NCBI GenBank assembly: GCA_963727455.1
Contig: CAVSGG010000009.1
Span: 256,001 to 320,000, forward strand
Direction: 5' to 3'
Source: Candidatus Krumholzibacteriota bacterium
GTDB taxonomy: Bacteria; Krumholzibacteriota; Krumholzibacteriia; JAJRXK01
Length of the DNA stretch: 64,000 nt
The notes under the pieces are model-generated. The model did not search any database, was not told the DNA's origin, and worked only from the letters and a program-made list of their open reading frames with translations. Shown here in pieces: positions 1 through 19,705 of the stretch (its first letter is position 1; each line of letters starts with the position of its first letter). The translations under genes and the position numbers were made by a program.

Positions 1-801
1 TCTGCCATTCAACATGGAAGCGACGGCCAATTCACCCTAGCGAAATCCGAGGTGGAAAAGGCCTTGGCACTCGATCCTTGGGACGAGCATGCCAAGGCGG
101 TCCGTAGACTTGCGACCGACGCAATCGCAGCTAGGGCCGATTCGGCGACAATCATCCATCTTTTCCGAGCCACTCAACTCAGAAATGCAGGAAGTCTGGA
201 TGAGTCACTCTCCGAAATCGATATGGCGGTCAAGCAAAGTCCAAACTACGCGCTTGCCTATCTCGTCCGCGGGAACATCCGTCTTGCAAATGCCAGCGTC
301 GATGGAGCTATTGCCGATTACGATCATACGATCAGCCTTGATTCCTCAGACGCCGTCGCCTACTACAATCGAGGCGTGGCGTATGTCACAAAGAAAAACT
401 ACGTGAGTGCCATTGCAGATTTCACAAAGGCGATCACGCTTGATCCAAAGGATGTTGCCGCATACAAGAACCGAGGCAACGCCAATCAAGTGCTGGGCAA
501 GCACAATGAAGCACTTGCTGACTATAACAGCGCAATTGCGATCAATCCGAATGATGTCCACGCCTTCTACAATCGAGCCGAGGAGTGGTCACGATCTGGG
601 CAATTCGAGAAAGCGATCGCAGATTACGGAAAAGCGATCGAGCTGGACAAGAACTTCGCTGAAGCCTATGACAGCAGAGGTTTTGTGTACCTCGTAAAGC
701 TCGGCAAGACGGAGCTTGCGTGCATCGACTGGAAGCGCGCCTGCGAACTTGGTCGATGCTCAAACTACAATCTCGCAAAATCAAAGGGCTATTGCAAATG
801 A
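1..801 (+). CDS. Tetratricopeptide repeat protein (5' end outside window)
   Basis: Tandem 34-aa TPR units (AYYNRG..AIADFTKAITLDP) and a C-terminal ACIDWKRACELG cap. The frame is open from base 1. Confidence 0.9.
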   Translation, partial: SAIQHGSDGQFTLAKSEVEKALALDPWDEHAKAVRRLATDAIAARADSATIIHLFRATQLRNAGSLDESLSEIDMAVKQSPNYALAYLVRGNIRLANASVDGAIADYDHTISLDSSDAVAYYNRGVAYVTKKNYVSAIADFTKAITLDPKDVAAYKNRGNANQVLGKHNEALADYNSAIAINPNDVHAFYNRAEEWSRSGQFEKAIADYGKAIELDKNFAEAYDSRGFVYLVKLGKTELACIDWKRACELGRCSNYNLAKSKGYCK

Positions 802-852
802 TGGATTGGCCCAAAACATGGTGGGCCTGCTGGCCGCTTCGCCTATGGTATA

Positions 853-1901
853 CTGCATTCAACGACTAAGTGCAACACGCCTGTCTGAACGCCTCCGCAG
901 GTGTTTGGTAATTCAGGCACTTACGAGGCCTGTTGTTCAGTCTTCTCTCGACCGATACTACCTGATTCCTTGTCACTTTGTTGAAGTATGTTCCCTTTGG
1001 GAAGTAGCGTCGGACCAAGCCGATGCTGTTCTCAACAGTCCCCTTTTCCCAGCTGTGATAAGGTTCACAGAAGTACGCCTGAGTGCCCAGGGCGCGATCG
1101 ACCCAGCAATGGCATGTGTTCTCTGCACCGTTATCGTAAGTGATTGTCGCTCGGATGTGGTCGGGATAGCTGCCGAGACTTTCAACCAGCGACTTGCGGA
1201 ACGCCATAGCCGTTTTTCGAGAGATGGCCTTGATCCTCATGTACCGAGTCTTGCGTTCGACAGCAACAGCGAGCGCCGCCGTCCCGCGAGGTGAGTTGGC
1301 GGTGTCGACCTCCCAGTGTCCTGGCTATTCCCGTGTAAGCACATGCTGGGGGCGTTCGGAGATGAAAACCCTGTTGGGGATACGGAATCGGGAGTGTTTG
1401 CAATACCGGCGCGGTAGTCGTTTGCGGTGAGACTTGGCGAGCCGAGGGATCAGCTCCCTAGCCTCGAGGTAGATCCATTGATAGATGGCTTCGTGACTGA
1501 CGGTCAGCGAGTGACCTTCGTATCGAAGTCGTCCGGCGATCTGCTCGGGTGACCAGCCTCGTTTGAGACCGATTCGGACATATGACCTCAGGAAGGGGGC
1601 TTTCAGACGCAGCCGACGATGACTTTGCCTCCAACGAAGGTCGGCTTCGGTTTGGGCTTTATGGGGCAGATAGCCGCTTGATCTGCCGGAGGAGGCGTTA
1701 CGACGCAGCTCCCGTGAGATCGTCGAGGGAGACCGACCGAGTTGAGCCGCGATCGCTCTCATCGGCAGGTCCTGGCCCTTGAGGATCGCCAGACGATCCC
1801 GCTCCTCTTCGGACAAGTGCTTGTAGTGTTTAGACATAATCCGCGCATTCTAGCGCGGAAGTCGCTAAGCCAGAAGTGTTGCACTTGCTTATTGAACTCG
1901 G
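853..1901 (-). mobile_element. IS30-family insertion sequence
   Basis: Imperfect ~26-bp terminal inverted repeats CTGCATTCAACGACTAAGTGCAACAC (853-878) and GTGTTGCACTTGCTTATTGAACTCGG (1876-1901) flank an IS30 transposase. Confidence 0.9.
866..1837 (-). pseudogene. IS30 transposase with one in-frame stop
   Basis: HTH (YKHLSEEER..IAAQLGRSPSTISRELRRN), WSPEQI, GHWEVDT, TITYDNG, PYHSWEKGTVEN and LNNRPRKCL motifs. ORFs 1325-1837 and 866-1240 share a frame and are split by TAG at 1325-1327. Confidence 0.9.
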
Positions 1902-1911
1902 GGCAGGGACA

Positions 1912-1943
1912 GGCCGCGGCCCCAGAGGGCCGCGGCTCCTTTC
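1912..1943 (+). terminator. GC-rich hairpin, possible intrinsic terminator
   Basis: GCCGCGGCCC-CAGA-GGGCCGCGGC stem-loop followed by TCCTTT. Confidence 0.45.
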
Positions 1944-1987
1944 ATCTGTTGCTGCTTCTTCAAACTCTTCATCGCACCAAGGTCAAT

Positions 1988-2086
1988 ATGGTGATCATCG
2001 CACCGAGAACACAGCGCAAAGAGCACCCGTTTCGAAGGTCGTTGCTCGCTTGTCGGCTAAAGCGCCGTATACAATCCACTATCCGT
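1988..2086 (+). repeat. IS91/ISCR-like right end (oriIS), copy 1 (~99 bp)
   Basis: Near-identical to 3968-4066 and 8478-8576. Ends GTATACAATCCACTATCC|GT. Confidence 0.85.
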
Positions 2087-2124
2087 ACGGGGCCCTTGCG
2101 TTCCTGCGCCCTTCCGGGTGGGGG

Positions 2125-3234
2125 CTACAGCTGGACGGCGATGATGCGGAAGCTGACCTCGACTTCGCAGTCGGCGGATCCGGTGAGGTTGATGGTGTGG
2201 ACGCCGGGCGAAAAGCCGTCGGAGCCGCGATAGACGCGGCTGTCCGACCTGTCGTCCATATCGGAATCGTGTATGGGGTCGCCGAAGTCGGTCCACTGCA
2301 GGTCCCACTCGGTCACGCGCACTTCGACCTCGAGGGCCTGGATTTCGCTGAGTGGGAGCGGGCCGAGCTGCGCGGAGTTGAGGGTCAGCGATCCGTTCTG
2401 GTCAACGTGGATGACGTGGTCCTTGCTGGGATAGTCGGTGGTCTCGGCGACGAGCAGGCGGTCGCCGGTCGGCGTAACGACGTTGATCTGGTAACAGAAT
2501 TCGCCGTCGCCGCCATCAGCGTTGGTGGCGCTGTCGCACGAATTGGGCGCCGCGAATCTTTCGGCTTCCACATAGACTTCGTACTGCTTGGGCAGGGGGT
2601 CACCCACCTGCAGTGTGAACTGCGCGTACTGGCCACGGTACTCGATCCAGAGCTCGGTCGCGCCCTGGTCGACGTGGACGGTGGCCACTCCGAATGGATC
2701 GACGGAAATGGCGGCGGGGTTGGACGAGTCGAAGACCGCGCGGTCGGTGATGTCGAGCGTGGTGGCGTCGGGGTATCGAATCTCGATCTTGAGCTGACGG
2801 GTCTCGCCGGGGTTGAGCTGGAGTGCCTGGTCGACCCCGCTGTATCCCTCGAGTGAGATGGAGCCCTGAGGATACCCACGCGTCGGAACACCGAGAAAGT
2901 CGGAGAAGGTGACGCCGCGGTAGCGGATGCGCACCTGGGTGACACCGATGTCGACCGCTGTCACGACGCCGTTGTCCGCGGTAGCCACGGTGGGGTCGAG
3001 CGTGTCCCAGGCGGCGTCTTCGGTGACATCGTGGGTTGTGCCGTCCTCGTACATGACCATGGCCTTCATGGCCGTGGTGCCACCGAGGGATACGTTGAGC
3101 GCGCCCTCGATCCAAACGCGTGTGATAGCCGGGCCCTTGTCGAGCACCGGGGCGGTGCCGTTGTCAGAGCAGCCGACGACCGCCATCGCGACAAGCAACA
3201 GCGTGATAATGAAATAGAGGTGATTTCGCTTCAT
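2125..3234 (-). CDS. Lipoprotein with two bacterial Ig-like (Big_2-type) domains
   Basis: Lipobox VVGC. Two repeats, YEDGTTHDVTEDAAWDTLDPTVATA and YPDATTLDITDRAVFDSSNPAAISV. GAGG RBS upstream of ATG 3234. Confidence 0.8.
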   Translation of the reverse strand: MKRNHLYFIITLLLVAMAVVGCSDNGTAPVLDKGPAITRVWIEGALNVSLGGTTAMKAMVMYEDGTTHDVTEDAAWDTLDPTVATADNGVVTAVDIGVTQVRIRYRGVTFSDFLGVPTRGYPQGSISLEGYSGVDQALQLNPGETRQLKIEIRYPDATTLDITDRAVFDSSNPAAISVDPFGVATVHVDQGATELWIEYRGQYAQFTLQVGDPLPKQYEVYVEAERFAAPNSCDSATNADGGDGEFCYQINVVTPTGDRLLVAETTDYPSKDHVIHVDQNGSLTLNSAQLGPLPLSEIQALEVEVRVTEWDLQWTDFGDPIHDSDMDDRSDSRVYRGSDGFSPGVHTINLTGSADCEVEVSFRIIAVQL

Positions 3235-3266
3235 TTTCAATCCTCGTGTTTGAGCTTCCATTATCA

Positions 3267-3436
3267 AGACTGTAAGCTTTTCTGTGTAACTGGCCTTGAA
3301 CTATACTCTATCAAAGGAGAAGAGCCATGGCCAAGCCAGATCCTACCGACAAGTTGCTCGATGAGCTCATCGCCGGCAAGAAGCCCGAGGAGTTTCTCGG
3401 CAACGATGGCATCCTCAAACAGTTGACCAAGCGCCT
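3267..3436 (+). mobile_element. IS256-family left-end remnant (terminal repeat plus ~37 N-terminal codons)
   Basis: AGACTGTAAGCTTTTCTGTGTAACTGG resembles an IS256 end. AGGAG RBS and ATG 3327 give MAKPDPTDKLLDELIAGKKPEEFLGNDGILKQLTKRL, typical of an IS256 transposase N-terminus. Confidence 0.75.
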
Positions 3437-4066
3437 CACCGGCCAACGTGATCTCGAACTCGATGTTCTGGAGATGATCCGCCGTCTGTGCGCCTAGATC
3501 CCCGCACCACGCCAGCATTTGGTCAGATACTACGGCTGGTACTCGCACCGGGCCCGAGGGGCAAGAGCTGACCCGCCCGACGCGACGATCGCCAGGGCAC
3601 CGTCCACTGCGCGCAGCCGCAGCTGGGCACGCCTGCTGCGCAGGATCTTCGAGCTGGACCCCATGCTCTGCCCGCAGTGCGGGGGAACCATGAAGATCGT
3701 GTCGGTGATCGACGAAGCAGCGGTGGTGGACCGGATTCTCAGACACCTGGCACGGATCGGCGGCAACGACCCGCACGAAGGGACCGCGCAACGAGCTCCG
3801 CCAAGAGCATGAACCCCTACCAGTACCCTCAGCCTCCCGACGAATGCGCAAGGGCACGAGCGTCGGGGGTACGGTGTGCCCAAGGATAGGTGGAAGCCGC
3901 TCAGGTGGGCGCATGTCGGGCGAACAGAGTTGCGGTAGCGTGAGTCGGGGATCGACCATCAATCCTCATGGTGATCATCGCACCGAGAACACAGCGCAAG
4001 GAGCACCCGTTTCGAAGGTCGTTGCTCGCTTGTCGGCTAAAGCGCCGTATACAATCCACTATCCGT
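3437..4066 (+). mobile_element. IS91/ISCR-like element remnant, copy 2 (3' transposase plus 254-bp tail to oriIS)
   Basis: TGQRDLELDVLEMIRRLCA*IPAPRQHLVRYYGWYS...WARLLRRIFELDPMLCPQCGGTMKIVSVI. Internal TAG at 3495, stop at 3812. The end is followed by GTTC, a known IS91-family target tetranucleotide. Confidence 0.9.
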
Positions 4067-4447
4067 TCGACCCACCACCCAGGAAAGGCTCAGCCCGATG
4101 GGGCCGATCCAGGGGAAAGTGCAGAGGCTCAGGATCGCAAGGGCGAAGACGCCCAGGGCAGACCAGTCCGGCGGATGTGCGGCGCTCCTTGCGGATGTGG
4201 GTTCGGTTTTGTCTCGTCCCGCATGAGTCTCCCAGTCCGTCGGCTCCCCCAGCCGCTTCAGGATCGCGTTCACCTCGTCGGCGTCGGCGGGCTGCGTGCG
4301 CTCGATACCCACCGATTCGCGAACGTGGTCGCGGATGTCCGTACACACCTCGGTGGCGTCCACTTCCATGCCACGCAACGACTGCCTGACCTCGTCGAGG
4401 TAGCTTTCGAGCGCCGCGGCTCCTTCGGGAGTGAGTCCTTCAGTCAT
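4067..4447 (-). pseudogene. PadR-associated membrane protein (HAAS-like N-terminus), 3'-truncated by the oriIS end
   Basis: ESYLDEVRQSL..DIRDHVRES..ILKRLGEP followed by TM segments. The frame runs into the repeat and ends TDSGLYTAL. Confidence 0.7.
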
Positions 4448-4778
4448 CGCTGGGCTCCGCCAGAATTGCCAAACGGTCGACGAGAGCGGTCCACTCACCC
4501 CTCATCCACGTGAGTTCCCGCCGGCCAATTCGAGTCAATCGGTAGTATTTTCGCGCCGGGCCTTCGGCGGATTCCACGAGTTCGCTCGAAATCAGACCGG
4601 CGCGCTTCAAGCGGTTCAGCATGGGATAGACCGTGCCCTCGCCCACCTCGAGGCCGGTGACTTCGCAGATTCTCTGAACCAGGTCATAGCCGTATCGCTT
4701 CCTTTCATGCAGGACTTCGAGCACCACGAGCTCCAGCACGCCCTTTCGGAGCTGCGTCATCCAGTTGTCACGCATCAT
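4440..4778 (-). CDS. PadR-family transcriptional regulator
   Basis: QLRKGVLEL..YGYDL..EGTVYPMLNRL..GPARKYYRLT. Confidence 0.95.
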   Translation of the reverse strand: MMRDNWMTQLRKGVLELVVLEVLHERKRYGYDLVQRICEVTGLEVGEGTVYPMLNRLKRAGLISSELVESAEGPARKYYRLTRIGRRELTWMRGEWTALVDRLAILAEPSDD

Positions 4779-4792
4779 TAGCTTTCACCATG

Positions 4793-4811
4793 TACTATGT
4801 ATAACATAGTA
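4793..4811. promoter_or_regulatory. Putative PadR operator
   Basis: Perfect inverted repeat TACTATGT-ATA-ACATAGTA about 15 bp upstream of the padR start. Confidence 0.65.
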
Positions 4812-4947
4812 GTGGTGCGGCAGCAAGGGTTCACTGGAGCGAGAAGATCTGGGTGGGACTCTTGAAAGAGATGACTGGTTCGGCCTACAATGGCTCTGGC
4901 TCCCGACGGTAAAGACTTGTATGCTGCCACGAAGAAGGAGTCGCACC

Positions 4948-5628
4948 ATGATCAAACTAGCCATGTTCGCTACCTTCGTGGCGATCCTCGCCATGGCTTC
5001 CGAGGCATCCGCTCAGAAGATCGGCATGGCCTTCGACGAGGCGGGAACCGTGTTCTACATCGACGGACGAACGGATCTCGTTCCCAATCCTGACCTATAT
5101 GACTTCCCCTCAGTCGACGTCTGGGTCATCGCGTACGACATTCCCGAGCTCTCCGGATACGAGTACAAACTGAGCTCGACCGATGCTTCTGCTATTGTTA
5201 GCACTGCGGTCGTCTATCCTACGGCGACGGCTCAAAACTCCGGCGATGCCTTGGTGGGTGAGGTTCGTGTCGACACCGGGGTCTGCTTCCTGGCCGGTAG
5301 TGCAGATGCGGGACCCGATCCTACTCATATCCGCCTGGCCAAGCATACCTTCACCTGGACTTCACCCCCGACGGTGGACGTGCTTTACTGTATCGGCCCC
5401 TCGATCGCTTCGGGTGCGGTTGCTCCGCAGTACACGGAGTGCGTCGCGAATCCGGCCTCTCTCTCCTTTGGTGTTGCAAATGAATGGGATGACACCTGCA
5501 CCCCTTATGGCTGCGTTCCCATCGTCTTCGAGTGGGAATCTGACGGAGTAACGGGGGTAAATTGCCGGCAGCGTGAACCCTCACCAGCTGCGTCCACGAG
5601 CTGGGGCGCGCTAAAGGCCGCATACTAG
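4948..5628 (+). CDS. Secreted hypothetical protein with C-terminal SWGALKAAY motif
   Basis: AAGGAG RBS, signal peptide ending ASA, Cys-rich body, conserved-looking C-terminal tail. Confidence 0.8.
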   Translation: MIKLAMFATFVAILAMASEASAQKIGMAFDEAGTVFYIDGRTDLVPNPDLYDFPSVDVWVIAYDIPELSGYEYKLSSTDASAIVSTAVVYPTATAQNSGDALVGEVRVDTGVCFLAGSADAGPDPTHIRLAKHTFTWTSPPTVDVLYCIGPSIASGAVAPQYTECVANPASLSFGVANEWDDTCTPYGCVPIVFEWESDGVTGVNCRQREPSPAASTSWGALKAAY

Positions 5629-5651
5629 CGCGACCTGACAAGTCACTTTTC

Positions 5652-5972
5652 CTTGGCACGGATCGGCGGCAACGACCCGCACGAGGGGACGGCGCAACGA
5701 GCTCCGCCTAGAGCATGAACCCCTACCTGATCGCTCAGCCTCCCGACGAATGCGTAACAGCACGAGCGTCGGGGGTACGGTGTGCCCAAGGATAGGTGGA
5801 AGCCGCTCAGGTGGGCGCATGTCGAGCGAACAGAGTTGCGGTAGGGTGAGTCGGGGATCGACGATCAATCCTCATGGTGATCATCGCACCGAGAACAGCA
5901 TGCGAGGGACGCACGTTTCGAAGGTCAGTGCTCGCTCGGCGTCCAAAGCGCCGTATACAATCCACTATCCGT
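5652..5972 (+). mobile_element. IS91/ISCR-like element remnant, copy 3 (last ~22 codons plus 254-bp tail)
   Basis: Matches copy 4 from CTTGGCACGGATC onward. Stop at 5718. Ends CAATCCACTATCC|GT. Confidence 0.9.
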
Positions 5973-6004
5973 AATTCCTGGGCTGGCGCTGAGGTGTACC
6001 TGAT
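5971..6004 (+). repeat. Candidate element left end (terIS-like), copy A
   Basis: GTAATTCCTGGGCTGGCGCTGAGGTGTACCTGAT resembles 14454-14488. Both copies are tied to oriIS copies. Confidence 0.5.
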
Positions 6005-6013
6005 CGGCTCGAC

Positions 6014-6043
6014 TTGCCCCCCGGGCACGAGCGGCGCTATGAT
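6014..6043 (+). promoter_or_regulatory. Possible sigma70 promoter
   Basis: TTGCCC-N18-TATGAT upstream of the lipoprotein pair. Confidence 0.35.
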
Positions 6044-6225
6044 CTGAAAAGTTCCCCCGTATCCAGGAGAATTCGATGGTCCGATTCCCGCGCAATGGGA
6101 TCAGGGCTCGGCCATTTTTTGCGATCAGCCAGTTCCAGTGGATCACTTCCTCTGGAGCGTCCTCTTCGAAGGTGACCATCGTGGCAAGACTCCGCCGGTC
6201 CGCGTGCAAGGTCTCTGAGGCGACC

Positions 6226-6921
6226 ATGCACGCCATCATGGGCCGCTTCCTGCTCCGATCCTCGTTCGCGACCCTCGCCACCGCCCTGGTTCTGTTCTCC
6301 GCCTGCTCGAGCTCCAAGAGCCCCACTGGCACGTCCACTTCCTGCGGAGATGCAAACGTCCACTGCGTGTACGCAACCCTACAGGCCACAGACTGGCGGA
6401 CCAGTGTAACCTATCTGGGACCGACCTACGACGTTACCGACTACGTAGGAGCCGGCTATTTGGAGACGCCGAACATCCCAGACGTTTCGCCCGGGGATGA
6501 GATCACCCTCAACATCACACTCTCTCCTCCGATCGTGGTCACCAGTAATGTGCCGTCTCTGGTAGCCCTGCAGTTCGTGGGCTTACTCGACAACGTCAAC
6601 ACCTACCTGTACATGACCGCCGATGCGTCCGTTAGCTTGCGAGGAGACTGGACGAACGCGGAGCCTCAGCCAGTGAGCATGCGCGGGATCGGGAGGCCGG
6701 GATACGTCGAGCACTTGCTCGCCAACGTGAACGTGAGTGGGTTGTCCGAAGGTGACGAGCTGAAGGGAATCAGCCTTCGATTCACCATGCCTGAAGTATG
6801 GTCCGATTCCACGGCGATCGCATTGGATCGGACCTTTCCCTTCAACAGCTTCAATTGGTCCACCGAACTGCCTGGCGACACCAGCGGAGATATTCCCCCA
6901 ATCCAGTTGAAAGCACAGTGA
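6226..6921 (+). CDS. Hypothetical lipoprotein (paralog A)
   Basis: Lipobox FSAC-SSSKSPTG. Shares CGDANV.C, PDVSPGD, VVTSNVPS, SEGDEL and PPIQ motifs with the next gene. Confidence 0.8.
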   Translation: MHAIMGRFLLRSSFATLATALVLFSACSSSKSPTGTSTSCGDANVHCVYATLQATDWRTSVTYLGPTYDVTDYVGAGYLETPNIPDVSPGDEITLNITLSPPIVVTSNVPSLVALQFVGLLDNVNTYLYMTADASVSLRGDWTNAEPQPVSMRGIGRPGYVEHLLANVNVSGLSEGDELKGISLRFTMPEVWSDSTAIALDRTFPFNSFNWSTELPGDTSGDIPPIQLKAQ

Positions 6922-6927
6922 TTTAAG

Positions 6928-7608
6928 ATGATGAATCGCCCCAAGCCGCTTCCTTTGTTCGTTCTCCTTTTGACCCTCGGCGTCTTGCTCTTCGCCTGCT
7001 CGGACAGCAAGAGTCCCACCGGCCCTTCCATCGCCTGTGGGGATGCAAATGTGGATTGTTTGACACAGAGCTTCGGTGCATCCGATTGGGCACAGAACGC
7101 CAGCTACTACGCTCCGGGAGACGTAACGAACTTCACCGGGGGCACCGCGCTCTCCGCCCCGAACTTCTCGGACGTCTCACCAGGAGATCAAGTCCACATC
7201 CAGCTGTCGTTCTCGCCACCTCTCGTCGTGACGAGCAACGTGCCGTCCCAAGTAACACTCATGCTGGAGGGAACGAACGGCACCAGTAGCTATGACGAAT
7301 ACGTGTATGCCCCGCATACCTTTCGGATCCGAGGAAGCTGGCCCGACCCGTCGGGGACCAGGGTCGCCATCAACGGCATTAGAAAGACGGGCGAGATCGT
7401 GGAACTCAGAATCGACTGGCGCCCCACGGGCTTCTCCGAGGGGGATGAACTACGCGGTCTTACGGTGGACTTCACCATGCCCTCCGCGTGGTCCGACGGA
7501 GTGGACATCGGCGACAAACAACCGCTTCCCATCGAAGTCCTGACTTGGATCGTGAAGTTCGATGGCGACCACTCCGGAGACACCCCGCCAATTCAAGTGG
7601 GGAACTGA
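6928..7608 (+). CDS. Hypothetical lipoprotein (paralog B)
   Basis: Lipobox LFAC-SDSKSPTGP. Full-length paralog of 6226-6921. Confidence 0.8.
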   Translation: MMNRPKPLPLFVLLLTLGVLLFACSDSKSPTGPSIACGDANVDCLTQSFGASDWAQNASYYAPGDVTNFTGGTALSAPNFSDVSPGDQVHIQLSFSPPLVVTSNVPSQVTLMLEGTNGTSSYDEYVYAPHTFRIRGSWPDPSGTRVAINGIRKTGEIVELRIDWRPTGFSEGDELRGLTVDFTMPSAWSDGVDIGDKQPLPIEVLTWIVKFDGDHSGDTPPIQVGN

Positions 7609-7625
7609 CTCCGGAAGCGCTAGGA

Positions 7626-8576
7626 GCGAGGCGGTCGATGACCCCCGGGCGCAGGTGGGCACCATCGCGTCGATCCAGACCTTCGGCAGCTACGCCGCGA
7701 ACTTCCATCCGCACGTCCACGCGCTGATCACCGAGGGAGCGTTCCACCTACCGCGCCGCGGCGATCCATGGTTTGAGCGCGTCGAGTGGTGGGATCAGAA
7801 GACGCTGACTGAGCTGTTTCGACGGCTGGTGCTTAAAGAGCTCCGGCGCGCGAAGCGCCTGCGCGAGGAGACCGAGGCCATGCTCCTGTCATGGCAGCAC
7901 TCGGGCTTCGGGGTCCATGCCGGCGAGCCGGTGCTGCCCGATCACACCGAGCGCCAGGAGCACCTCGCGCGGTACATCACCCGCGCGCCGATCCGGCTCG
8001 ACGCGATCACCCCGCTCGACGCCAGCATTTGGTCAGATACTACGGCTGGTACTCGCACCGGGCTCGAGGGGCAAGAGCCAACCCCCAGGACGCGACGATC
8101 GCCAGGGCACCCTCCACTGCGCGCAGCCGCAGCTGGGCACGCCTGCTGCGCAGGATCTTCGAGCTGGACCCCATGCTCTGCCCGCAGTGCGGGGTAATGA
8201 TGAAGATCGTGTCGGTGATCGACGAAGCAGCGGTGGTGGACCGGATTCTCAGACACTTGGCACGGATCGGCGGCAACGACCCGCACGAGGGGACGGCGCA
8301 ACGAGCTCCGCCTAGAGCATGAACCCCTACCTGATCTCTCAGCCTCCCGACGAATGCGTAACAGCACGAGCGTCGGGGGTACGGTGTGCCCAAGGATAGG
8401 TGGAAGCCGCTCAGGTGGGCGCATGTCGGGCGAACAGAGTTGCGGTAGGGTGAGTCGGGGATCGACGATCAATCCTCATGGTGATCATCGCACCGAGAAC
8501 ACAGCGCAAAGAGCTCCCGTCTCGAAGGTCGTTGCTCGCTTTTCGGCTAAAGCGCCGTATTCAATCCACTATCCGT
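7626..8576 (+). mobile_element. IS91/ISCR-like element remnant, copy 4 (HUH domain to oriIS)
   Basis: QTFGSYAANFHPHVHALITEG (HUH), WQHSGFGVH, LARYITRAPI (catalytic Tyr), a frameshift near 8020, then VRYYGWYS...CPQCG. Stop at 8322 and a 254-bp tail. Confidence 0.92.
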
Positions 8577-8590
8577 AATCCACTATCCGT
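8563..8590 (+). repeat. 14-bp tandem duplication of the element tip
   Basis: AATCCACTATCCGT twice (8563-8576, 8577-8590). Confidence 0.95.
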
Positions 8591-9394
8591 CGATTCCCCA
8601 GGAACTCCCGGAGCAATCGGTGTCCAATCTCGGCGTCGAAACCGACGCTCCATGGAGCTACGTGGAGGATCCAGACTTCCATAGCAAAGTTGTGAGGGTG
8701 ACGATGTCGAATCCGGCATCGAGCCTATGGGTGATTCTGTCGGCCCGCGTGCTACGCCGCCCCGTACAAGGCGCCGGAGCCGGCGACGCTCGATGCCGCG
8801 CAGCGCCGCCTCTTTCTGCGCGAGGAGGGGCTGGTCAGTCTCAGCCCACGCATCCAGGCGCTGGCCGACAGCATCGCGGGCTCCAACCGCACTCGCTTCG
8901 ACTATGTCCGATCGACCATGAGTTACGACAAGCAGACCCCTGGTTGGGGGCACGGCGACTCGGAGCGGGCCTGCGATGTCCGCCGCGGGAACTGCACCGA
9001 CTTCCACTCGCTTTTCCTCTCGCTCTCGCGGGCCGAAGGCGTGCCGGCCAGATTCGAGATGGGCTTCCCCATGTCGCTCGCTGGCGAGAGCAATCATGCC
9101 GGGGGCTACCACTGCTGGGCCTGGTTCTACGACGACAGCGCGCAGGTCTGGGTCCCGGTCGACATCTCCGAGGCCAAGCTCGAGCCAAAGCGTTCCGACT
9201 ACCTCTTTGGACACCTGGACGCCGAGAGGGTGAGCTTCTCCCGCGGTCGCGATGTGCAGCTGCCAGGCATGAAAGGGCGCCCCCTCAACTACCTTCCCAG
9301 CAGCGCCTACGTGGAAGTGGACGGGAAGCCGCTCGACACGGTCGTGCGCACGCTCAGTTACTCGGTGGACGGGGCGGTGGGGGCCAAAGACTGA
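8591..9394 (+). pseudogene. Transglutaminase-like protein, 5'-truncated and frameshifted
   Basis: GNCTDFHSLF, YHCWAWFY and WVPVD give the Cys-His-Asp triad. It starts mid-gene at the repeat end, with a frame change near 8770. Confidence 0.8.
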
Positions 9395-9622
9395 TCGTCG
9401 AAGGCAGGGAGAAGATCAGTTCAGGCCGACGGCGGTCCTGGCCCAGCTAGCCGGACCGCCCGTCACACCTCACGGCTTCGCGCGACCTATTCTCTACGAG
9501 CCCCGCGGTGACGCCTCGAGTCGCACGCGTCTCGCGTTGAGGTCCCTAGGGATAGGAACTTCGATTTCGGATTTCCTTCTCATTTCCGGAGGAAAGGCCG
9601 TCCCCAAGAACTGGAGAGACTC

Positions 9623-12052
9623 ATGAAGCGCCCCCTCTTTGCAATTTCTTGCGCCGTGTTCGTAGTTCTGGCCCTGCCAGCAGCGCCCAGCCAGGCCTCG
9701 TGGCAGCAGTATGGCAATCCGGTGAGCTCGGTAATCAACGAGCAACAGCATTCGAGAGCGATCCCGGACGGCTCGGGCGGAGCATTCGTCGTCTGGGAGG
9801 ACGATCGCATCAGTTCGTCCGAGACGGACATCTATGCCCAGCGCCTCGATGCGGAAGGCAATCCTCTCTGGGTGGTCAATGGAGTAGCCGTGTGTACGGC
9901 CAGCAACGTTCAGATCGAACCGCAGCTGGTCAGCGCCGGTCCGGGTGGCGTAATCATCTCCTGGACTGACTATCGGCTTGGTTCCTCGAATGCCAATATC
10001 TACGCGCAGCGGCTCAGTACCGGTGGCATTCCACAGTGGACATCCAACGGCATCCTCGTCTGCGGAGCGGCCAATGACCAGTACGGTTCCCAGGTTGTTG
10101 CCGATGGAAAGGGAGGAGCCATCTTCACCTGGATGGATAAGAGGGCAGACACGCTTGGAGATATCTACGCTCAGCGACTCTCGGCAGCGGGTACGGGACA
10201 ATGGACCAGTAATGGAGTTGCAGTGTGTAGCGAAGGCTCGCAACAGTCAGACGTTCGTGCCGATAGCGATGGCATGGGCGGGATCGTAATGGCCTGGTAC
10301 GACTTTCGCTTTCCGGATGCGGACATCTTCGTCAACCGTCTCGATGACAGCGGATCGGTACTCTGGGGGAACAACGGAAGGGACATCAGCGGCATCATCG
10401 GAACCAGTGAGTTGAATCCAGAGATCGTTGGAGACGACGCCGGTGGCGCGGCGGTGATCTGGGAGGATGCGCGTAGCGGCGATCCGGATCTGTACGCCAC
10501 AATCCTGAACGCATCTGGCATCTCGACGACGACACCGTTTGCGGTGGCGGCAGAGGTTGATCGCCAGGACGACGCCGAGATGATTCGCGACCCCGCCACG
10601 GGAGATCTGATCGTGGTCTTCGTCGACCGGCGATCCACCGCGACCAACGACAACGACATCTATGCACAACGTTTCGATACGACCGGGAAGATGAAGTGGG
10701 ATTACAATGGAGTCGCGCTTTGCACTGCGACGTTCAACCAATTCAGCCCGAATCTGGCACTGGACGACGATGGCGGAGTTGTGTTTGCCTGGGAAGACTT
10801 TCGGAATTCACCCGCAGGGGGCATCTACGCGCAGCGGCTCTCGACCGAGGGCACACGCATGTGGCCGAACAACGGCATCCAGTTGTCCAAGCTACTGCTC
10901 TGCCGGGATCCTCAGGTTGTCGCAGACGGCGCGGGCGGAGCGTTCATCGCCTGGATGGACCACTTTACCGGTGACGGAGACATTCTGGCCCAGCGCGTCG
11001 AACTCGCCCATGGTTACTGGGGACACCCCGAACCGGTAATTTCGAGCGTCGCGGATGTTCCCGGCGATCAAGGCGGATTCGTGCGCGTGGACTGGCTACC
11101 GAGCGACCACGACGCGGCGGGTTTGACGGAGATCAGTCACTACTCGGTATGGCGCGCGACCGATGCCATCGCCAAGACTGCTGGTGGCGGCTTGACGCCC
11201 CAGGTCACCCTGGACGAAGTGGGCGCTGAATTCGAAGGCCCCGCCTACCGCCTCTCCGCGGCCGGCGACTTTTATTGGGAGTACATGGGGGAGCAGAGTG
11301 CCCACGCCTTCCCGGGTTACAGCATGGCAGTGGCGACCGAATCGGACATGACCGGCACCAATCCGGCTTTGCACCATTTCCAGGTCGTTGCCCATACCTA
11401 CTCGCAGTACGTGGTGTTCCCGTCGATTGAGGCAAGCGGTGCTTCGGTGGACGACCTGGCTCCCGCCTCGGCCAAGACCCTGGCCGCGGTGCGCGCTGGC
11501 GAGACCAACGTCGATCTCGACTGGAGCCCCAGTGGGGCGAATGAGCCCGACTTCCTCGAGTACGAGGTGTACCGCAGCAGCTCGCCCGCGGTCGCGATTG
11601 ACCCGGGCAACTTCCTGTTCGTGACAGCAGACACAATGGCCGTCGACACCGGCGCCGCTGCAACTTCGCCCTGGTACTACGTCGTTGTGGCGAAGGACGT
11701 ACACGGGAACCTCAGTGACGCGTCCAACGAAGCCATGGTCGACGTGGTAACCGGCGTGGGGAACTTTCAGCCCACCTCGCTGGGCCTCTTGAGCAACTGG
11801 CCGAACCCCTTTGGGTCGAGTGGGACGCAGCTTCGCCTGCGCTTGCCCCGCGCGGGTGAGGCCACTCTGGAGGTTTTCGATGTGCGCGGCCGCCGTGTGC
11901 GTGAGATCCGGCAACGATTCGGCGAAGGGGTGAATCGTCTCGAGTTCGACGGGCGCGACGCCCATGGGAGCGAACTGCCCAGCGGAGTGTATCTGGTTCG
12001 CCTGAAGTACGGCGGCGAATCGATGAGCCGGAAGATCATCATGCAGCGCTAG
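9623..12052 (+). CDS. Large secreted repeat protein with FN3-like and C-terminal FlgD-Ig/T9SS-like domains
   Basis: Signal peptide, repeated 'DG.GGA..W.D.R..DIYAQRL' units, C-terminal NWPNPF..FDVRGRRVR..FDGRD..G..LPSGVYLVRL. Confidence 0.88.
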   Translation: MKRPLFAISCAVFVVLALPAAPSQASWQQYGNPVSSVINEQQHSRAIPDGSGGAFVVWEDDRISSSETDIYAQRLDAEGNPLWVVNGVAVCTASNVQIEPQLVSAGPGGVIISWTDYRLGSSNANIYAQRLSTGGIPQWTSNGILVCGAANDQYGSQVVADGKGGAIFTWMDKRADTLGDIYAQRLSAAGTGQWTSNGVAVCSEGSQQSDVRADSDGMGGIVMAWYDFRFPDADIFVNRLDDSGSVLWGNNGRDISGIIGTSELNPEIVGDDAGGAAVIWEDARSGDPDLYATILNASGISTTTPFAVAAEVDRQDDAEMIRDPATGDLIVVFVDRRSTATNDNDIYAQRFDTTGKMKWDYNGVALCTATFNQFSPNLALDDDGGVVFAWEDFRNSPAGGIYAQRLSTEGTRMWPNNGIQLSKLLLCRDPQVVADGAGGAFIAWMDHFTGDGDILAQRVELAHGYWGHPEPVISSVADVPGDQGGFVRVDWLPSDHDAAGLTEISHYSVWRATDAIAKTAGGGLTPQVTLDEVGAEFEGPAYRLSAAGDFYWEYMGEQSAHAFPGYSMAVATESDMTGTNPALHHFQVVAHTYSQYVVFPSIEASGASVDDLAPASAKTLAAVRAGETNVDLDWSPSGANEPDFLEYEVYRSSSPAVAIDPGNFLFVTADTMAVDTGAAATSPWYYVVVAKDVHGNLSDASNEAMVDVVTGVGNFQPTSLGLLSNWPNPFGSSGTQLRLRLPRAGEATLEVFDVRGRRVREIRQRFGEGVNRLEFDGRDAHGSELPSGVYLVRLKYGGESMSRKIIMQR

Positions 12053-12107
12053 CTGCGGGCGGCATTACCCAGCCACGACGCAAGCGATCGCCGGGCCCAT
12101 CGTTCGC

Positions 12108-12503
12108 TCAAGCCGACGGCGGACCCGTCTTGTCGATGAGCTTCATCATGGCATGCGTGTCGGGAGCGATCAGCTCCGCGATGCGGGCGGAATTCACGTC
12201 GGCCACGATCATCTGACCCACCTCGCTGTGCACGTCGCTGAAGATGCCGTGCTTCATCATCTTCTGGGTCTGGTAGTGGTTGTCTTCGGTGGGGCTTACG
12301 TAGTGTACCGAGACCGCCCTGTAGCGGTGGATCAAAAACACGTGAATCAGAGTCATCAGGCGTTTCTTGCGCATCTCTTCGGCGAAAGTGTTTTGTATAC
12401 GAATGGAGAAAATGCTGCGTTCCTTGCGGTCCTTGATGTCGGCGAAGACCACGTTGGCCAGCTTGTCACCCTGACCGTCCTTGAGAACCAGCTCCAGAAG
12501 ATA
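12108..12503 (-). pseudogene. C-terminal domain fragment of a long (ICL2-type) isocitrate lyase
   Basis: QNTF..MRKKRLMTLIHVFLIHRYRAVSVHYVSPTEDNHYQTQKM..HGIFSDV..EVGQMIVADVN resembles the mycobacterial ICL2 C-terminus. The catalytic domain is absent, and the fragment abuts a transposase piece. Confidence 0.78.
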
Positions 12504-12504
12504 A

Positions 12505-12887
12505 CATCTGGTCGAGGAGGTGCTCAGCCCGGTTGCCCACCGCCACGTGGTTTTCACGGTACCCAAGGTGATCCGTGGATTGTTCGAGCGGGAGCGCCGA
12601 CTGTTGTCGATCCTACCGCGCTGCGCGCACCAGGCGACCCAGCGCCTGCTGTGCGAGGCGGTCGATGACCCCCGGGCGCAGGTGGGCGCCATCGCGTCGA
12701 TCCAGACCTTCGGCAGCTACGCCGCGAACTTCCATCCGCACGTCCACGCGAGCTGTTCCGAGGTCTGGTGCTTAAAGAACCCCGGCGCGCGAAGCGCCTG
12801 CGCTAGGAGACCACTCGACGCCAAGCAGGTGCGGGTTCGGACACCGATTTATCCCAGCACCGGCCAACGTGATCTCGAACTCGATGT
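12505..12887 (+). pseudogene. IS91/ISCR-like transposase fragment with two internal deletions
   Basis: HLVEEVLSPVAHRHVVFTVPK...QTFGSYAANFHPHVHA. 12653-12750 matches the start of copy 4, and 12858-12887 is identical to 3437-3466. Confidence 0.88.
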
Positions 12888-13205
12888 GACTGCTGATGGC
12901 GAACTTTCTAGTCAGCCCCCTGCAAGTGTACGAAGGGGCATTGAGCATAGAGCGATCGTGATCAGTCTCGGACTGGTCCACGACAGGCCGATGGCGAGAT
13001 CGAGGGCCCTTGGAATTTCTATCTGAGGGAACATCCGCAAATTGGAAACGGTAAAAGGAAAGTGGCAGCGTCGTCGAGAAAGTGGCTCATATTCACTTTC
13101 TTCCTTGCACTTTGCCAAGGCAACATGGAAGCGGAGTAGTCCATACGGACGCGAGCTGCCAGGTGTGAGCAGGATCTCGATGCAAACGACGGGCCGCGGC
13201 TTAGC

Positions 13206-14336
13206 CTACTGGTAGTCGAACTGTGTGCTCGAGATCCACTCGTACTCGCCCTTGATGTCGGCCGAGCCCAGGTCCGCGAAGGTGAAGTTCGGATCCGTGT
13301 AGGGATGGCCGTCCTCGTCCACGAAGGTGTAGTGCTCGACGGACTCCCAAACCGAGTAGACCACGGTCTTACCCTCGATGCCGGTCATCGTCCGCGTCAC
13401 CGTGACGGAGTTCTGCTCCTGGACGGTGACCGTGGACTGAAATGCCTCGGAAAGCGACCCGCCCAGCTTGGCGCCGACACCGGAGTACGACGCGCCGAGC
13501 TCGCCGTTGATCGCCCGCGTGAAGGTGTACGAGTCCTGGTAGTCGGTCCCCTGGGTGCGCGTATACGAGACCGAGAATGACGCGCCTGGATCGACGCGGA
13601 TACTCTTGAGCGTGCTCCCGTCGCTCAAGAGCGGCACGCGCACCCAGAACCGCTCACGCATGATATTCACCGGATTGGTGAGCAGCGGGCAACCGGTGGC
13701 CGCCACGTAGTAGGCGGCGCGACGAGTCTTTTCCCCGAAGGCCGGATCCTTGGCCACCGTGACGGAGCCGTTGAAAAGAGCCCCATGGATATGCAGGTCT
13801 GGATATTGAATGAAATCGAAGAAAGCTTCGGTCCTGTCCGGGTTGATCGGCTGCGCGAGCACGCTGCCATCGTTGATGAACTGCACCCGTTTCGGGAACG
13901 GATCCGGAGGGATGAAAGAACTCCCGTAGGGGGTCGGCGACCTGAGATCCACGACGCCGTTCTCGAAAACGAGAGCCGAGTTGTGGGCGGTGTGGTCGTA
14001 ATACGACCCAGGAGCGTCGCCGTACCACGCGTTGCCGCTCAAGTACTTTTGATACTGCGTCTGGACATCGATGTCCCAGGTGAATACGCCGGCCGTCCAT
14101 GTGGGTATGAAGTCCACTTTCTTGCCCTCGATGGGAACGATGTCCGAGTAGGTGGACGAGGTATCGGGCAGGATCTCGTTCGGCGTCGAGGGGCGCGGGA
14201 TCGGCGGAAACGAGTCAGGTGGTTTCGAGCCGTTTGTGTTGGTCGTCTGATCAGGAGCGGTTGACGATGAGCACGAGGAAAGCGCAAGGGCCGCGACAAG
14301 CCACATGGCGAGGACTGAGTAGAACAGGGGCTTCAT
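13206..14336 (-). CDS. Lipoprotein with a C-terminal Toxin_10/aerolysin-like beta-pore-forming domain
   Basis: Lipobox LSSC. The C-terminal RERFW..PGASFSVSYTRTQG..GELGASYSGVGAKLGGSLSEAFQSTVTVQEQNSVTVT..YSVWESVEHYTFVDEDG has Ser/Thr-rich strands around an amphipathic hairpin. Confidence 0.62.
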   Translation of the reverse strand: MKPLFYSVLAMWLVAALALSSCSSSTAPDQTTNTNGSKPPDSFPPIPRPSTPNEILPDTSSTYSDIVPIEGKKVDFIPTWTAGVFTWDIDVQTQYQKYLSGNAWYGDAPGSYYDHTAHNSALVFENGVVDLRSPTPYGSSFIPPDPFPKRVQFINDGSVLAQPINPDRTEAFFDFIQYPDLHIHGALFNGSVTVAKDPAFGEKTRRAAYYVAATGCPLLTNPVNIMRERFWVRVPLLSDGSTLKSIRVDPGASFSVSYTRTQGTDYQDSYTFTRAINGELGASYSGVGAKLGGSLSEAFQSTVTVQEQNSVTVTRTMTGIEGKTVVYSVWESVEHYTFVDEDGHPYTDPNFTFADLGSADIKGEYEWISSTQFDYQ

Positions 14337-14453
14337 TGCGACCTCCGCGGATCGGGTCTGGTGGGTGGCTCGCCTACGATGGGGGGAAATTTGCTGATCG
14401 CCGATTCGGGGGGAATGACTTTCATGATAACATCAAATAGATCGGGATAGCCC

Positions 14454-14579
14454 GTGAATTCTGGTGCCGGCGATGAGGTGTACCTGATTCACGCCGAAAT
14501 CAGTGTCCGAGGGAGAGAACCGTTTCGCAGCTCGGTGCTCGCTTGTCGGCCGAAGCGCCCCATACAATCCGCTATCCGT
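14454..14579 (+). mobile_element. Diverged oriIS copy 5 preceded by the candidate terIS motif (possible mini-element)
   Basis: 14492-14579 aligns to the repeat (CCGTTTCG..TGCTCGCTTGTCGGC..AAGCGCC..ATACAATCCGCTATCCGT). 14454-14488 aligns to 5971-6004. Confidence 0.7.
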
Positions 14580-14723
14580 CACTCCTGCTGACTCGAGTCC
14601 ATGCTTCCGCGCGGCTGATCGGCGTTTCGCTAGCTTTCTCCCCGACGTCTAGCGTACACTTGGCGCACGCGACGCACTGCCGTCGTGCGGTTACCGTACT
14701 TCCCCCGGTTCCGGAGGTATGGG

Positions 14724-15914
14724 ATGCGATCGCGCCTCCTCCCTGTCGTATTGGTATTCCTAGCACTCTCACTTGGTTGCGGCGACAGCAGCACTGGCCC
14801 CGACACGACCGGCGTCCAAGCGCTGAGGTTTGAGACTTTCCAACGCGCGAGTCTGGAATTCGGCCAGCTCGACATGAGCTCCGGAGACGCCAACCGGGGC
14901 ACCGTGACCAACCAGATCGGCCTCAGTTCGCCGAGCGGCGCGGGTTCCGGGTTGTTTTACCTTCCCGATCCGGGTAACAACCGCGTGCTGGGGTACACCT
15001 CATTTCCCACGACCAACGGCGCCGCCGCGGACTTCGTCGTCGGTCAGACCGGTTTCGGATTCAATCAGTCAGGGACATCGATCCAGCGCTTCCGGCGACC
15101 GACGGCCTGCGCGGTGTCCGACGGCAAGCTGTTCGTCACCGACTATTTCAACAACCGCGTGTTGATCTGGAACTCGCTCCCCACGGGCCCCGATTCGGCC
15201 GACGTCGTGGTCGGGCAGCCCGATTTCACGACAGCAAGCTCCGGGCTCTCGTCGACGAAACTGGGCGGTCCGATCGATCTCGCGGTCGCGGGAGGAAAGC
15301 TGTTCGTGGCCGAGTACGGCAACCACCGGGTCCTGATCTGGAACACCATCCCCACGACCAACGGCGCGCCCGCGGACGTCGTCGTGGGCAAGCCCGACTT
15401 CACGTCCGGGGGCGCCGGACCCACCGCCTCGATCACAGGCAACGTGTCAGCGGTATGGAGCGACGGAAGGCGGCTCGTGGTGACAGACGAATACAATGCC
15501 CGCGTCCTGATCTGGAATTCGGTTCCGACTGCGAACGGCGTCCCAGCGGACATCGTGCTGGGAGCGTCCGATTTCGAGAGCGAAGGTTGCTGCCGAGGGG
15601 GCTTCGACAACGCATTTGACCACCCAAGCGGACTGGCCTCGGACGGCTACAGCCTGTTCGTCGCCGACACCAGCGAGAATCGGGTGATGATCTACACGCC
15701 GTTTCCCCGCAAGAACAACGAGGCGGCGAGCCGGATCCTGGGGCAGGGCGCGTTCCACCGCGCCAGCCGGAACGACGACAACCAGGATGGGGTCGCCGAC
15801 GCCGGACCGTCCGACCGGACGATGTACCTCCCGACGGGGCTCAGCATCGTCGGCCGGCGGCTGCTGGTGGCCGATCAGTACAACAATCGGGTCCTGGTCT
15901 TCGACAGCAAGTAG
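14724..15914 (+). CDS. NHL-repeat beta-propeller lipoprotein
   Basis: GGAGG RBS, lipobox SLGC, repeated LFV.D..NNRVLIWN..PT.NG..AD.VVGQ.DF. Confidence 0.9.
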   Translation: MRSRLLPVVLVFLALSLGCGDSSTGPDTTGVQALRFETFQRASLEFGQLDMSSGDANRGTVTNQIGLSSPSGAGSGLFYLPDPGNNRVLGYTSFPTTNGAAADFVVGQTGFGFNQSGTSIQRFRRPTACAVSDGKLFVTDYFNNRVLIWNSLPTGPDSADVVVGQPDFTTASSGLSSTKLGGPIDLAVAGGKLFVAEYGNHRVLIWNTIPTTNGAPADVVVGKPDFTSGGAGPTASITGNVSAVWSDGRRLVVTDEYNARVLIWNSVPTANGVPADIVLGASDFESEGCCRGGFDNAFDHPSGLASDGYSLFVADTSENRVMIYTPFPRKNNEAASRILGQGAFHRASRNDDNQDGVADAGPSDRTMYLPTGLSIVGRRLLVADQYNNRVLVFDSK

Positions 15915-16012
15915 CGGCGGTATCTGCGAGGCGGGAAAGCTCGGCGCGCGAGCGGTCCCGCTGTCGCCTGCGCTGCGCGCACGAGGCGACCCAGCGCCGG
16001 CTGCCCGAGAAG

Positions 16013-16510: not shown

Positions 16511-16520
16511 CGCAAACCTC

Positions 16521-19690: not shown

Positions 19691-19705
19691 TCTTCCTGGA
19701 AAACC

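Follow-up and report, generated by a model that had tools for sequence, protein, structure and literature searches.

The stretch analysed here, a window of 64,000 nucleotides (G000:C9:256001-320000, i.e. part of contig C9 in G000, a 3.46-Mb assembly of Candidatus Krumholzibacteriota from an uncultured wetland bacterium), covers the distal third of a strain-variable chromosomal island of ~50 kb in which co-oriented copies of one IS91-family insertion sequence (IS) alternate with unrelated accessory genes. We favour, with modest confidence, the explanation that this island is an accretion and rearrangement hotspot, which was seeded by one IS91-family element and remodelled by origin-anchored one-ended events and by recombination between the copies.

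A search of the window with the pattern CAATCCRCTATCCGT (at most one mismatch) returned six matches, all on the plus strand, with ends at 2086, 4066, 5972, 8576, 8590, and 14579; in a shuffle control, 0.01 matches were expected and none of 100 shuffles reached six. Five of these ends belong to the same-orientation copies with a common end that an earlier reading of this DNA (the sequence-only reading) had described; it had omitted the mini-copy ending at 8590, as well as an internal piece (12503-12898) and the ~30 kb of array upstream of the window. The end-bearing copies share the origin-side terminal sequence ...CTATCCGT, and a repeat search of the window recovered the same five-member family together with longer families for the three long copies. 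As had been claimed, the 3' end is constant and the 5' extent varies (about 100, 630, about 320, 951, and 60 bp by BLAST, the last copy spanning 102 nt at 63% in the repeat search), and in the three long copies (f, g, and h in Table 1) exactly 254 bases run from the transposase TGA (3810, 5716, and 8320, respectively) to the T of the GT. Copy h codes for the HUH part of the transposase (Y2_Tnp positions 1-127). Two genes had also been said to be broken at junctions: one was found, a transposase start of ~37 codons at the 5' junction of copy f, which we take to be IS256-like by its N-terminal motif and not by library comparison, and the second was not.

BLAST of window positions 7601-8578 against the 3.46-Mb assembly gave 16 alignments in one orientation throughout, which were confined to C9:226598-268812 and to regions near the ends of contigs C8 (496346-500257) and C2. 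An uninterrupted open reading frame (ORF) for a 433-aa transposase occupies C8:498701-500002; the earlier statement that no intact transposase is present is thus true of the window but not of the assembly. The 433-aa protein matches Zn_Tnp_IS91 (PF14319, 7.3e-22) and Y2_Tnp (PF04986, 5e-26, positions 1-178 of 183) in Pfam and the NCBIfam IS91 model NF033538 (198 bits vs a cut-off of 125), in agreement with the IS91-family identity proposed before, whereas its score with the ISCR clade Ia model NF052416 (184 bits vs a cut-off of 925) places it outside that clade. HPHVH and YYGWY are readable in the translation, and are presumably the HUH motif and the two catalytic tyrosines spaced YxxxY, respectively. 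Protein identity to plasmid-borne IS91-, ISVsa3-, and ISCR1-type transposases is ~32-36%. Judged by the transposase family matches and the BLAST homology, the window repeats all stem from a single IS91-family element, about 1.6-1.8 kb long, and are truncated on their 5' side.

The constant end lies downstream of the transposase gene and is, by homology with IS91, the putative origin side; the available text of PMC13181058 places the origin end of IS91 downstream of its transposase gene. A terminator-side end is also present in this element, the exact 5' end being uncertain within about C8:498466-498632. No inverted pairs of at least 40 nt, as terminal inverted repeats would give, were found in window positions 1-20000, and the 5' region and the 3' end are unrelated. 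The reference copy folds into two hairpins (-12.6 and -15.8 kcal/mol for the two strands); in an alignment of 19 ends, only the hairpin CGCTTT-N6-AAAGCG is retained, with little covariation. Conservation of the last ~26 nt of the element extends to old copies, and G005, a relative from another genus (59% protein identity), has ATACAAnCCnCTATCCG at C39:8659, about 275 nt past the transposase stop, which indicates that the terminal sequence is conserved well beyond the genus. The DNA downstream of two plasmid IS91-type transposases showed no recognisable similarity to this end.

An island at one site in two species

The island (C9:226557-276513) is flanked by two convergent core genes, a P5C-dehydrogenase-like gene that ends at C9:226556 and a CBS-like gene from C9:276514 onward. 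Its first feature is an old solo end about 40 nt past the stop of the former, and its distal border lies at about window position 20513, beyond which the IS-free genomes G002 and G004 are syntenic again. Ten IS91 pieces were identified on C9 (Table 1), all on the plus strand; the origin end is kept in eight of them and the other end in one. All 12 occurrences of the end motif in the whole assembly are on the plus strand (none on the minus strand), and they fall only in C9:226-271 kb, at the end of C8, and at the end of C2, so that the clustering and co-orientation noted in the window hold for all 12 ends. The identity of the C9 pieces to the intact copy ranges from 81.7 to 99.8%, at least four tail variants exist, and the ages of the copies are unordered along the array. 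Given the varied identities and tail variants, the copies therefore represent repeated events and not one duplication. Other IS elements in the island are an IS30-like element (two inverted copies with 99.4% identity over 1060 bp), an IS3-like element, an IS66 transposase, and the presumed IS256-like fragment.

Table 1. Pieces of the IS91-family element, other mobile elements, and genes of the island. Positions are those of the window unless a contig is named; percentages for IS91 pieces are identities to the intact copy on C8.
Feature	Position	Strand	Description
IS91 solo end	C9:226598-226658	+	old end only, about 85%; orthologous to C8:496346-496406
IS91 piece b	C9:228909-229341	+	5' end, large internal deletion, stops at 500047; 96.6%; origin end missing
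IS91 copy c	C9:244657-245516	+	499398 to end, 99.4%; then 28-nt tandem mini-copy
IS91 copy d	C9:255410-255904	+	499763 to end, 99.8%; then 38-nt mini-copy
IS91 copy e	1988-2086	+	last ~100 bp of element, from C8:500158; 93% to C8:500158-500257
IS91 copy f	3437-4066	+	630 bp, C8:499627 to end, 96.3%; stop 3810-3812
IS91 copy g	5654-5972	+	~320 bp, C8:499938 to end, 89%; diverged tail subtype
IS91 copy h	7626-8576	+	951 bp, C8:499194 to end, 95-97%; 97-bp internal deletion
Tandem mini-copy of element end	8577-8590	+	14 nt, directly after copy h; absent in strain variant L105
IS91 piece i	12503-12898	+	internal parts, C8:499044-499666 with deletions; origin end missing
IS91 copy j	14520-14579	+	old 60-bp end remnant, C8:500197 to end, 81.7%; CCGCTATCCGT
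IS30-like element	849-1911	-	Pfam HTH_38, HTH_23, partial rve; inverted copy of C9:236762-237824
Transposase start	3326-3436	+	~37 codons, broken at 5' junction (3437) of copy f; from translation
IS66	C9:249602-251977; G001 L016:13883-16258		2376 bp, 100% between G001 and C9
IS3-like			common to G001 and C9; 1520 bp, 98.6%
Block of copy e, 380-aa lipoprotein gene, and copy f			common to G001 and C9; 2.7 kb, 99.5%
380-aa lipoprotein	2125-3267	-	no family match; within 2.7-kb block 99.5% identical in G001
235-aa signal-peptide protein	4921-5628	+	C-terminus ...WGALKAAY
Two tandem paralogous lipoprotein genes	6226-6921, 6928-7608	+	42% identical; complete once first start corrected
809-aa secreted protein	9623-12052	+	type IX secretion system (T9SS) C-terminal sorting domain; TIGR04183 38.5 bits, cut-off 23
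376-aa lipoprotein	13206-14336	-	signal prediction
409-aa NHL-repeat lipoprotein gene	14685-15914	+	in 1.54-kb segment 14580-16122
Distal part of island	16013-20513		SBBP-type and other lipoprotein genes

A search for the transposase in G000 and 40 relatives gave matches at E <= 1e-10 in 16 of these 41 genomes. Among the four other genomes of the genus, a match was found in one (G001); at this threshold, none was found in G002 or G004. In these two genomes, the P5C-dehydrogenase-like gene is followed by the ortholog of the gene from C9:276514 onward within 5 to about 150 bp, so that C9:226557-276513 is an insertion between two convergent genes, and relatives without the repeats also lack the cargo, which the sequence-only reading had left to be checked. 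The flank query was unmatched in G003, where the site was not scorable.

The same site in G001 is occupied by a different island, about 45 kb in length, in which a single 40-nt mini-copy accompanies 10 IS91 copies (one of them intact), all in one orientation. The origin end is kept in all 10 copies and the other end in three; the ends read ...CCGT save one, which reads ...CCGA. The core flanks of G001 and C9 are 73-82% identical and most of the island DNA is unrelated. Non-IS91 DNA common to the G001 island and the ~41-kb array interior of C9 amounts to only about 6 kb, 98.6-100% identical. Among the near-identical pieces are IS66, the IS3-like element, and a 2.7-kb block in which copy e with identical flanks, the 380-aa lipoprotein gene, and copy f are retained. 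The right edge of this block is the end of copy f, the sequences diverging from the first base past GT, and its left edge falls inside the IS30-like element. Copy d is 100% identical to the intact G001 copy over 494 bp. Such near-identical pieces amid core flanks of 73-82% identity indicate that parts of the island have moved between species recently, and the identity of IS66 points to a very recent exchange between these two. Cargo thus differs between genomes and also between strains (see the L105 variant below).

The assembly G000 has a completeness of 88.9% and a contamination of 6.7%. C8:260690-498684 is collinear with C9:12-228961 over ~230 kb (~82-95% identity, about 85%), and C2:1-40099 with C6:10296-50389 over ~40 kb (about 87% identity); in both pairs, collinearity breaks exactly at an IS91 element. 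These two collinear pairs indicate that G000 is a bin holding two related organisms, which would account for the 6.7% contamination, and searches of its 'own genome' consequently mix the two. Because contig C8 is collinear with C9 at ~85%, the copy with the intact transposase is assigned, from sequence comparison, to the second organism of the bin.

Several minor features of these contigs may be added. The IS91 copy at C2:40205-41290 has two internal deletions and lies exactly where the C2/C6 collinearity stops; it is followed by a gene for a 488-aa SBBP-repeat secreted protein, the contig ends 1.8 kb further, and this copy may represent a second, smaller island. The P5C-dehydrogenase-like gene beside the island (C9:224903-226556) is split into two frames in G000 and open in relatives. 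A long-read indel error probably accounts for the split, and little weight should therefore be given to small frameshifts in the IS copies. A 33-bp stretch at window positions 13123-13155, also present in G001, is 88% identical to C9:226540-226572, which comprises the 3' end of the same gene and the left border of the island, so that a scrap of the island's own left border region lies inside the array. In every case, the old solo end and the 'native' IS copy flank a gene for a 687-aa protein (C9:226695-228758, minus strand), which has a weak HNH match (Pfam, 21.3 bits) and resembles the HNH part of IscB (1e-8); it is present on C9, at C8:496443-498500, in G001, and on the metagenome contig L084, where a near-complete IS91 copy (93.9%) lies beside the same gene as on C8.

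Junctions, copied units, and strain variants

CTATCC is followed by GT at 22 of the 23 ends of G000 and G001, and the bases beyond vary; GTTC is present at 3 of 12 ends in G000 and at none of 11 in G001. Mini-copies, all located exactly at ends, trail copies c, d, and h on C9, where they repeat the terminal 28, 38, and 14 nt including the GT, and the one in G001 repeats 40 nt. Two larger copied segments, a 2.09-kb unit in G001 and an NHL segment in G000, both start directly after GT, the latter with 3 nt of microhomology. Because the mini-copies include GT and the duplicated segments start right after it, the junction appears to lie after ...CCGT, with GT belonging to the element. The GTTC target considered earlier is not borne out, since only GT is constant and lies inside the element. 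The 40-nt mini-copy of G001 differs from the neighbouring end at several positions and is not a simple slip. Two readings are available for the mini-copies, which may reflect an abortive start with re-joining at the nick or may be the left tips of imported segments that halted just inside an upstream end. The last flank base before the truncation junction is T in 8 of 12 cases, a post hoc observation that serves as a lead only. No direct repeat was evident at the borders of the whole island, and no clean empty site was found for the C2 copy, as the C6 homology halts at the IS and does not resume.

Copies that extend beyond the element were found in G001. Two copies of a 736-bp stretch, 99.2% identical and ending ...CCG, each consist of 169 bp upstream of the 5' end of the element and a deleted IS copy. 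The intact copy, at another place, carries 134 bp of native upstream flank. An upstream flank of 134 or 169 bp is thus present on three copies (the intact and two deleted ones), which matches the prediction of terminator read-through. G001 also has two copies, 98.9% identical, of a 2.09-kb unit composed of a secreted-protein gene and a 247-bp origin fragment; in one of them the left edge is the first base past an upstream ...CCGT, and in both the right edge is the unit's own ...CCGT. This is expected if a terminator-less origin fragment moves upstream DNA and either halts at the next end or inserts at a resident end, and it lends support, from G001, to the oriIS-anchored assembly that the sequence-only reading had inferred.

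In the C9 island, the only duplications of at least 1 kb are the IS30-like element and the NHL segment. The latter (14580-16122) starts right after the GT of copy j and has a 97.9% identical copy at C9:229339-230880, which is joined inside piece b and includes 110 bp of the distal flank gene. We could derive this arrangement from no simple event; it may reflect the joining of two haplotypes.

Four wetland-metagenome runs (X1-X4, public data in the form of contigs only) contain 27-56% of the words of window positions 1900-9600. Their Logan contigs, which are short and uninformative on long-range order, cover most of window positions 1-16500 at 95-100% and bridge several cargo/IS junctions; one X1 contig departs from the window sequence at 1913, beside the IS30-like element. 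A scan of JGI metagenome contigs with a 19-nt end pattern yielded 42 loci, of which five (on four contigs) are related to the IS and the remaining 37 are apparent chance matches, as expected for the size of the pattern. Among the contigs obtained, L079 bridges the end of copy f into the downstream cargo (98.4%), and L105 (6273 bp) represents a strain variant that matches window positions 5756-8290 at 99.8% and 13206-16619 at 99.7%. At the L105 junction, a g-type tail (98.4%) is placed on the body of copy h and is followed by 142 unique bases; 8577-13205, with the T9SS protein gene and piece i, is missing. The two forms part within 3 nt past the ...CCGT of copy h. The hybrid tail is best explained, from the sequences compared, by recombination between co-oriented copies. 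Contigs of L105, X1, and X2 run from 13206 through 14579 into the NHL gene. A joint between 5975 and 13206 in X1 and X2 was considered as evidence that segment 13206-14579 can lie directly after an end, and was rejected because L105 has the 142 unique bases between them.

Mobilisation model, alternatives, and related systems

On balance, we lean towards a locus that works like the one-ended mobilisation of IS91, IS801, and ISCR, concentrated at one chromosomal site and without a dedicated cassette system, and we infer that the IS91 enzyme itself moved cargo. A signature of one-ended transposition appears in the structure, i.e. the truncated copies, the additional 134 or 169 bp of flank, and the copied 2.09-kb unit. 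In the proposed sequence of steps, the HUH transposase would nick just past ...CCGT and peel a strand toward the transposase gene, and termination would be imprecise: an early stop would leave copies of 14 nt to 1.3 kb, and a late one would add 134-169 bp of upstream flank. Copies lacking the terminator end could be mobilised only together with upstream DNA, by which gene-plus-end segments would be copied or imported; an upstream end would serve at least sometimes as a halting point, and resident ends would be preferred breakpoints. Homologous recombination among the co-oriented copies would then delete, swap, and hybridise segments, and the outcome would be a strain-variable patchwork of mostly surface-protein genes. 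The co-orientation can result from strand-specific insertion or from integration by homology.

These steps have precedents in the family. According to the available text of PMC13181058, the transposase initiates at the origin end and frequently fails to terminate at the other, single-stranded circles insert, and one-ended transposition makes up 1-14% of events in IS91 and IS1294. For IS801, the portion of PMC3189936 at hand states that right-end fragments of 229, 360, and 679 nt transpose, that IS801 right-end fragments end at a consensus tetranucleotide, and that the element carries adjacent DNA.

Several points weigh against the one-ended mobilisation model. All of its steps are deduced from static sequence. 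No intact IS91 transposase was found on the contigs assignable to the C9 organism, and no donor locus for the window cargo was found in the assembly. The clear duplication with two boundaries at end sites is in G001 and not in the window. Twelve independent 5' truncation points share no common tetranucleotide in the element; early termination at pseudo-terminators is therefore unsupported, and later deletions could account for these points. DNA could also have been brought in by the IS30-, IS3-, IS66-, and IS256-like elements. A single assembly underlies the long-range order of the array; the public contigs confirm local junctions only and, in addition, show an alternative arrangement. In G005, from another genus, IS91 fragments are clustered, but only one end motif was found in the 75 kb examined, so that the array form is not shown as general.

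Some of these points agree with a passive origin, which we regard as possible but doubtful. The site would be an ordinary hypervariable region that received its genes by other routes (other IS elements, recombination, or transformation), IS91 having moved no cargo; the co-orientation would stem from strand-specific insertion relative to replication, and the copies would have been trimmed at random later. The four other IS families, the absence of a sequence signature at the truncation points, the intergenic position of the truncated copies among intact cargo genes, and the missing donor loci are all compatible with such a graveyard. So is the literature in part: Bardaji et al. attribute most genomic IS801 fragments to reorganisations and not to one-ended transposition (PMC3189936, available text), and insertion of IS91 as a single-stranded circle, as given in the accessible part of PMC13181058, could yield a strand bias. 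Random deletion should, however, hit both ends equally, whereas the origin end is kept in 18 of 20 copies and the other end in 4 of 20. The mini-copies exactly at ends, the ...CCGT edges of the 2.09-kb and NHL duplications, the copies with 134 or 169 bp of upstream flank, and the divergence of L105 exactly at an end likewise speak against a passive origin.

A more active role is suggested tentatively, and seems rather unlikely, namely that origin-only fragments are portable start/stop signals, the transposase starting at one ...CCGT and halting at, or tens of nt inside, the next upstream end, with each inter-end segment as a cassette. If this is true, one seeded end would grow into an integrase-free, HUH-driven array, and surface-protein genes would be shuffled within and between species. 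A dedicated cassette system, in which each origin end is the start of its own segment and the stop of the next and which forms an integrase-free analogue of the integron selected for surface-protein shuffling, is in our view decidedly improbable. The 2.09-kb unit of G001, which spans exactly one ...CCGT to the next, would fit it, as would mini-copies interpreted as left tips halted 14-40 nt inside the upstream end, near the hairpin, especially the 40-nt copy of G001, which no simple slip explains. However, this is the single clean two-ended duplication; the left edge of the 2.7-kb block shared with G001 lies inside the IS30-like element, no end marks the right border of the variant segment 8577-13205, and the copy ages show no order along the array.

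Gene content bears on this point in both directions. All six cargo genes between the copies in 1988-14579 are exported and apparently intact, which upholds the earlier description of mostly lipoprotein or secreted cargo for that range, but over the whole island the excess is weak, as a crude home-made predictor assigned export to 11 of 42 ORFs vs 562 of 2720 (21%) genome-wide. The bias is thus local, judged by these counts, and the conserved distal part of the island is also lipoprotein-rich. The first gene past an IS91 end is on the IS strand at 7 of 8 ends in G000, but at only about 5 of 9 in G001. By analogy with ISCR1, the 254-bp tail might conceivably contain an outward promoter; no conserved promoter or recombination site was seen beyond the IS end, the tails not having been scanned for promoters.

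An assembly artefact, i.e. an array mis-joined from repeats of at least two co-binned strains, is unlikely, and we rate its probability as very low. The bin does hold two genomes about 85% identical over 230 kb, the frameshifted core gene beside the island suggests long-read indel errors, the 1.54-kb NHL segment present twice at 97.9% could be two haplotypes strung together, and L105 has another arrangement. Against this stand the independent assembly G001, which has the same type of array at the same site, including the copy e and f junctions, and the metagenome contigs (L105, L079, and the Logan contigs of four runs), which bridge the f, g, h, and j junctions at 98-99.8%. Mis-assembly, named by the sequence-only reading as a possible cause of the repeats, is thereby countered for the local junctions; the order of the whole array is unconfirmed.

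The locus resembles IS801, IS91, and IS1294 in its transposase domains and in the fixed origin end downstream of the gene with a variable other end. Shortened right-end fragments and copies with adjacent upstream DNA are also in common, these being experimental findings there (PMC3189936 and PMC13181058, as far as their available text goes) and structural ones here. It differs in the low protein identity to the plasmid-borne members (~32-36%), in the constancy of GT alone beside the end instead of GTTC or CTTG, in the lack of the consensus tetranucleotide that marks IS801 truncation points, and in the packing of ~10 co-oriented copies at one chromosomal site in each of two species. A limited search of the literature, in the text available, did not turn up any earlier account of a chromosomal hotspot that is packed, in two species, with co-oriented and origin-anchored copies.

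ISCR elements have an IS91-like rolling-circle transposase that is thought to mobilise adjacent genes, and their co-oriented copies alternate with accessory genes as do those described here; the model for how complex class 1 integrons are assembled also includes homologous recombination. Unlike ISCR, the present element scores far below the ISCR clade Ia cut-off and has a terminator-side end, and the island has no resistance genes and no integron backbone, its cargo consisting of surface-protein genes in an environmental bacterium. Chromosomal integrons are similar in having co-oriented repeats between unrelated accessory genes and a strain-variable content. The integron resemblance drawn earlier nevertheless does not hold: no integrase was detected among the 40 island ORFs scanned in Pfam, in which the only rve matches were IS30- and IS3-type transposases, gene orientation is mixed (as that reading had itself pointed out), and there is no age order that would mark insertion at one end. 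No attC-like site was seen, no dedicated attC model having been used. Helitrons share the HUH rolling-circle chemistry, gene capture by imprecise termination, and tandem arrays (PMC12001565, available text), whereas a fused helicase is absent here, the fixed end lies downstream of the transposase gene, and the host is bacterial.

IS91 and ISCR elements are credited with assembling resistance and virulence regions, and their capacity to build arrays has been argued mostly from clinical plasmids. The islands at this site offer a natural chromosomal example from an uncultured phylum, in which early-stopped, read-through, and mini-copies occur side by side with a gene-plus-end unit copied between two ends, an empty site in relatives, and near-identical pieces in species that are only ~80% identical in the core. 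The model makes testable predictions, namely a nick after ...CCGT and the use of an upstream origin end as terminator, and surface-protein repertoires in Krumholzibacteriota may diversify via such islands.

Cargo genes

The genes between the copies in the window are listed in Table 1. Cargo further upstream in the island includes genes for a MarR regulator, a DUF2339 membrane protein, a BlaR1-type M56 peptidase, an S8 peptidase, and TPR proteins. Many island proteins have the motif (S/T)(W/F)GxLKxx(Y/F) at or near the C-terminus, as in the 235-aa protein of the window (5605-5628) and in the products of C8:500537-501343, C8:501255-502376, C2:41539-43005, and, in G001, L016:2451-3059 and L016:8265-9416. 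This motif may serve in sorting or anchoring via the C-terminus, as a signal separate from the longer T9SS domain.

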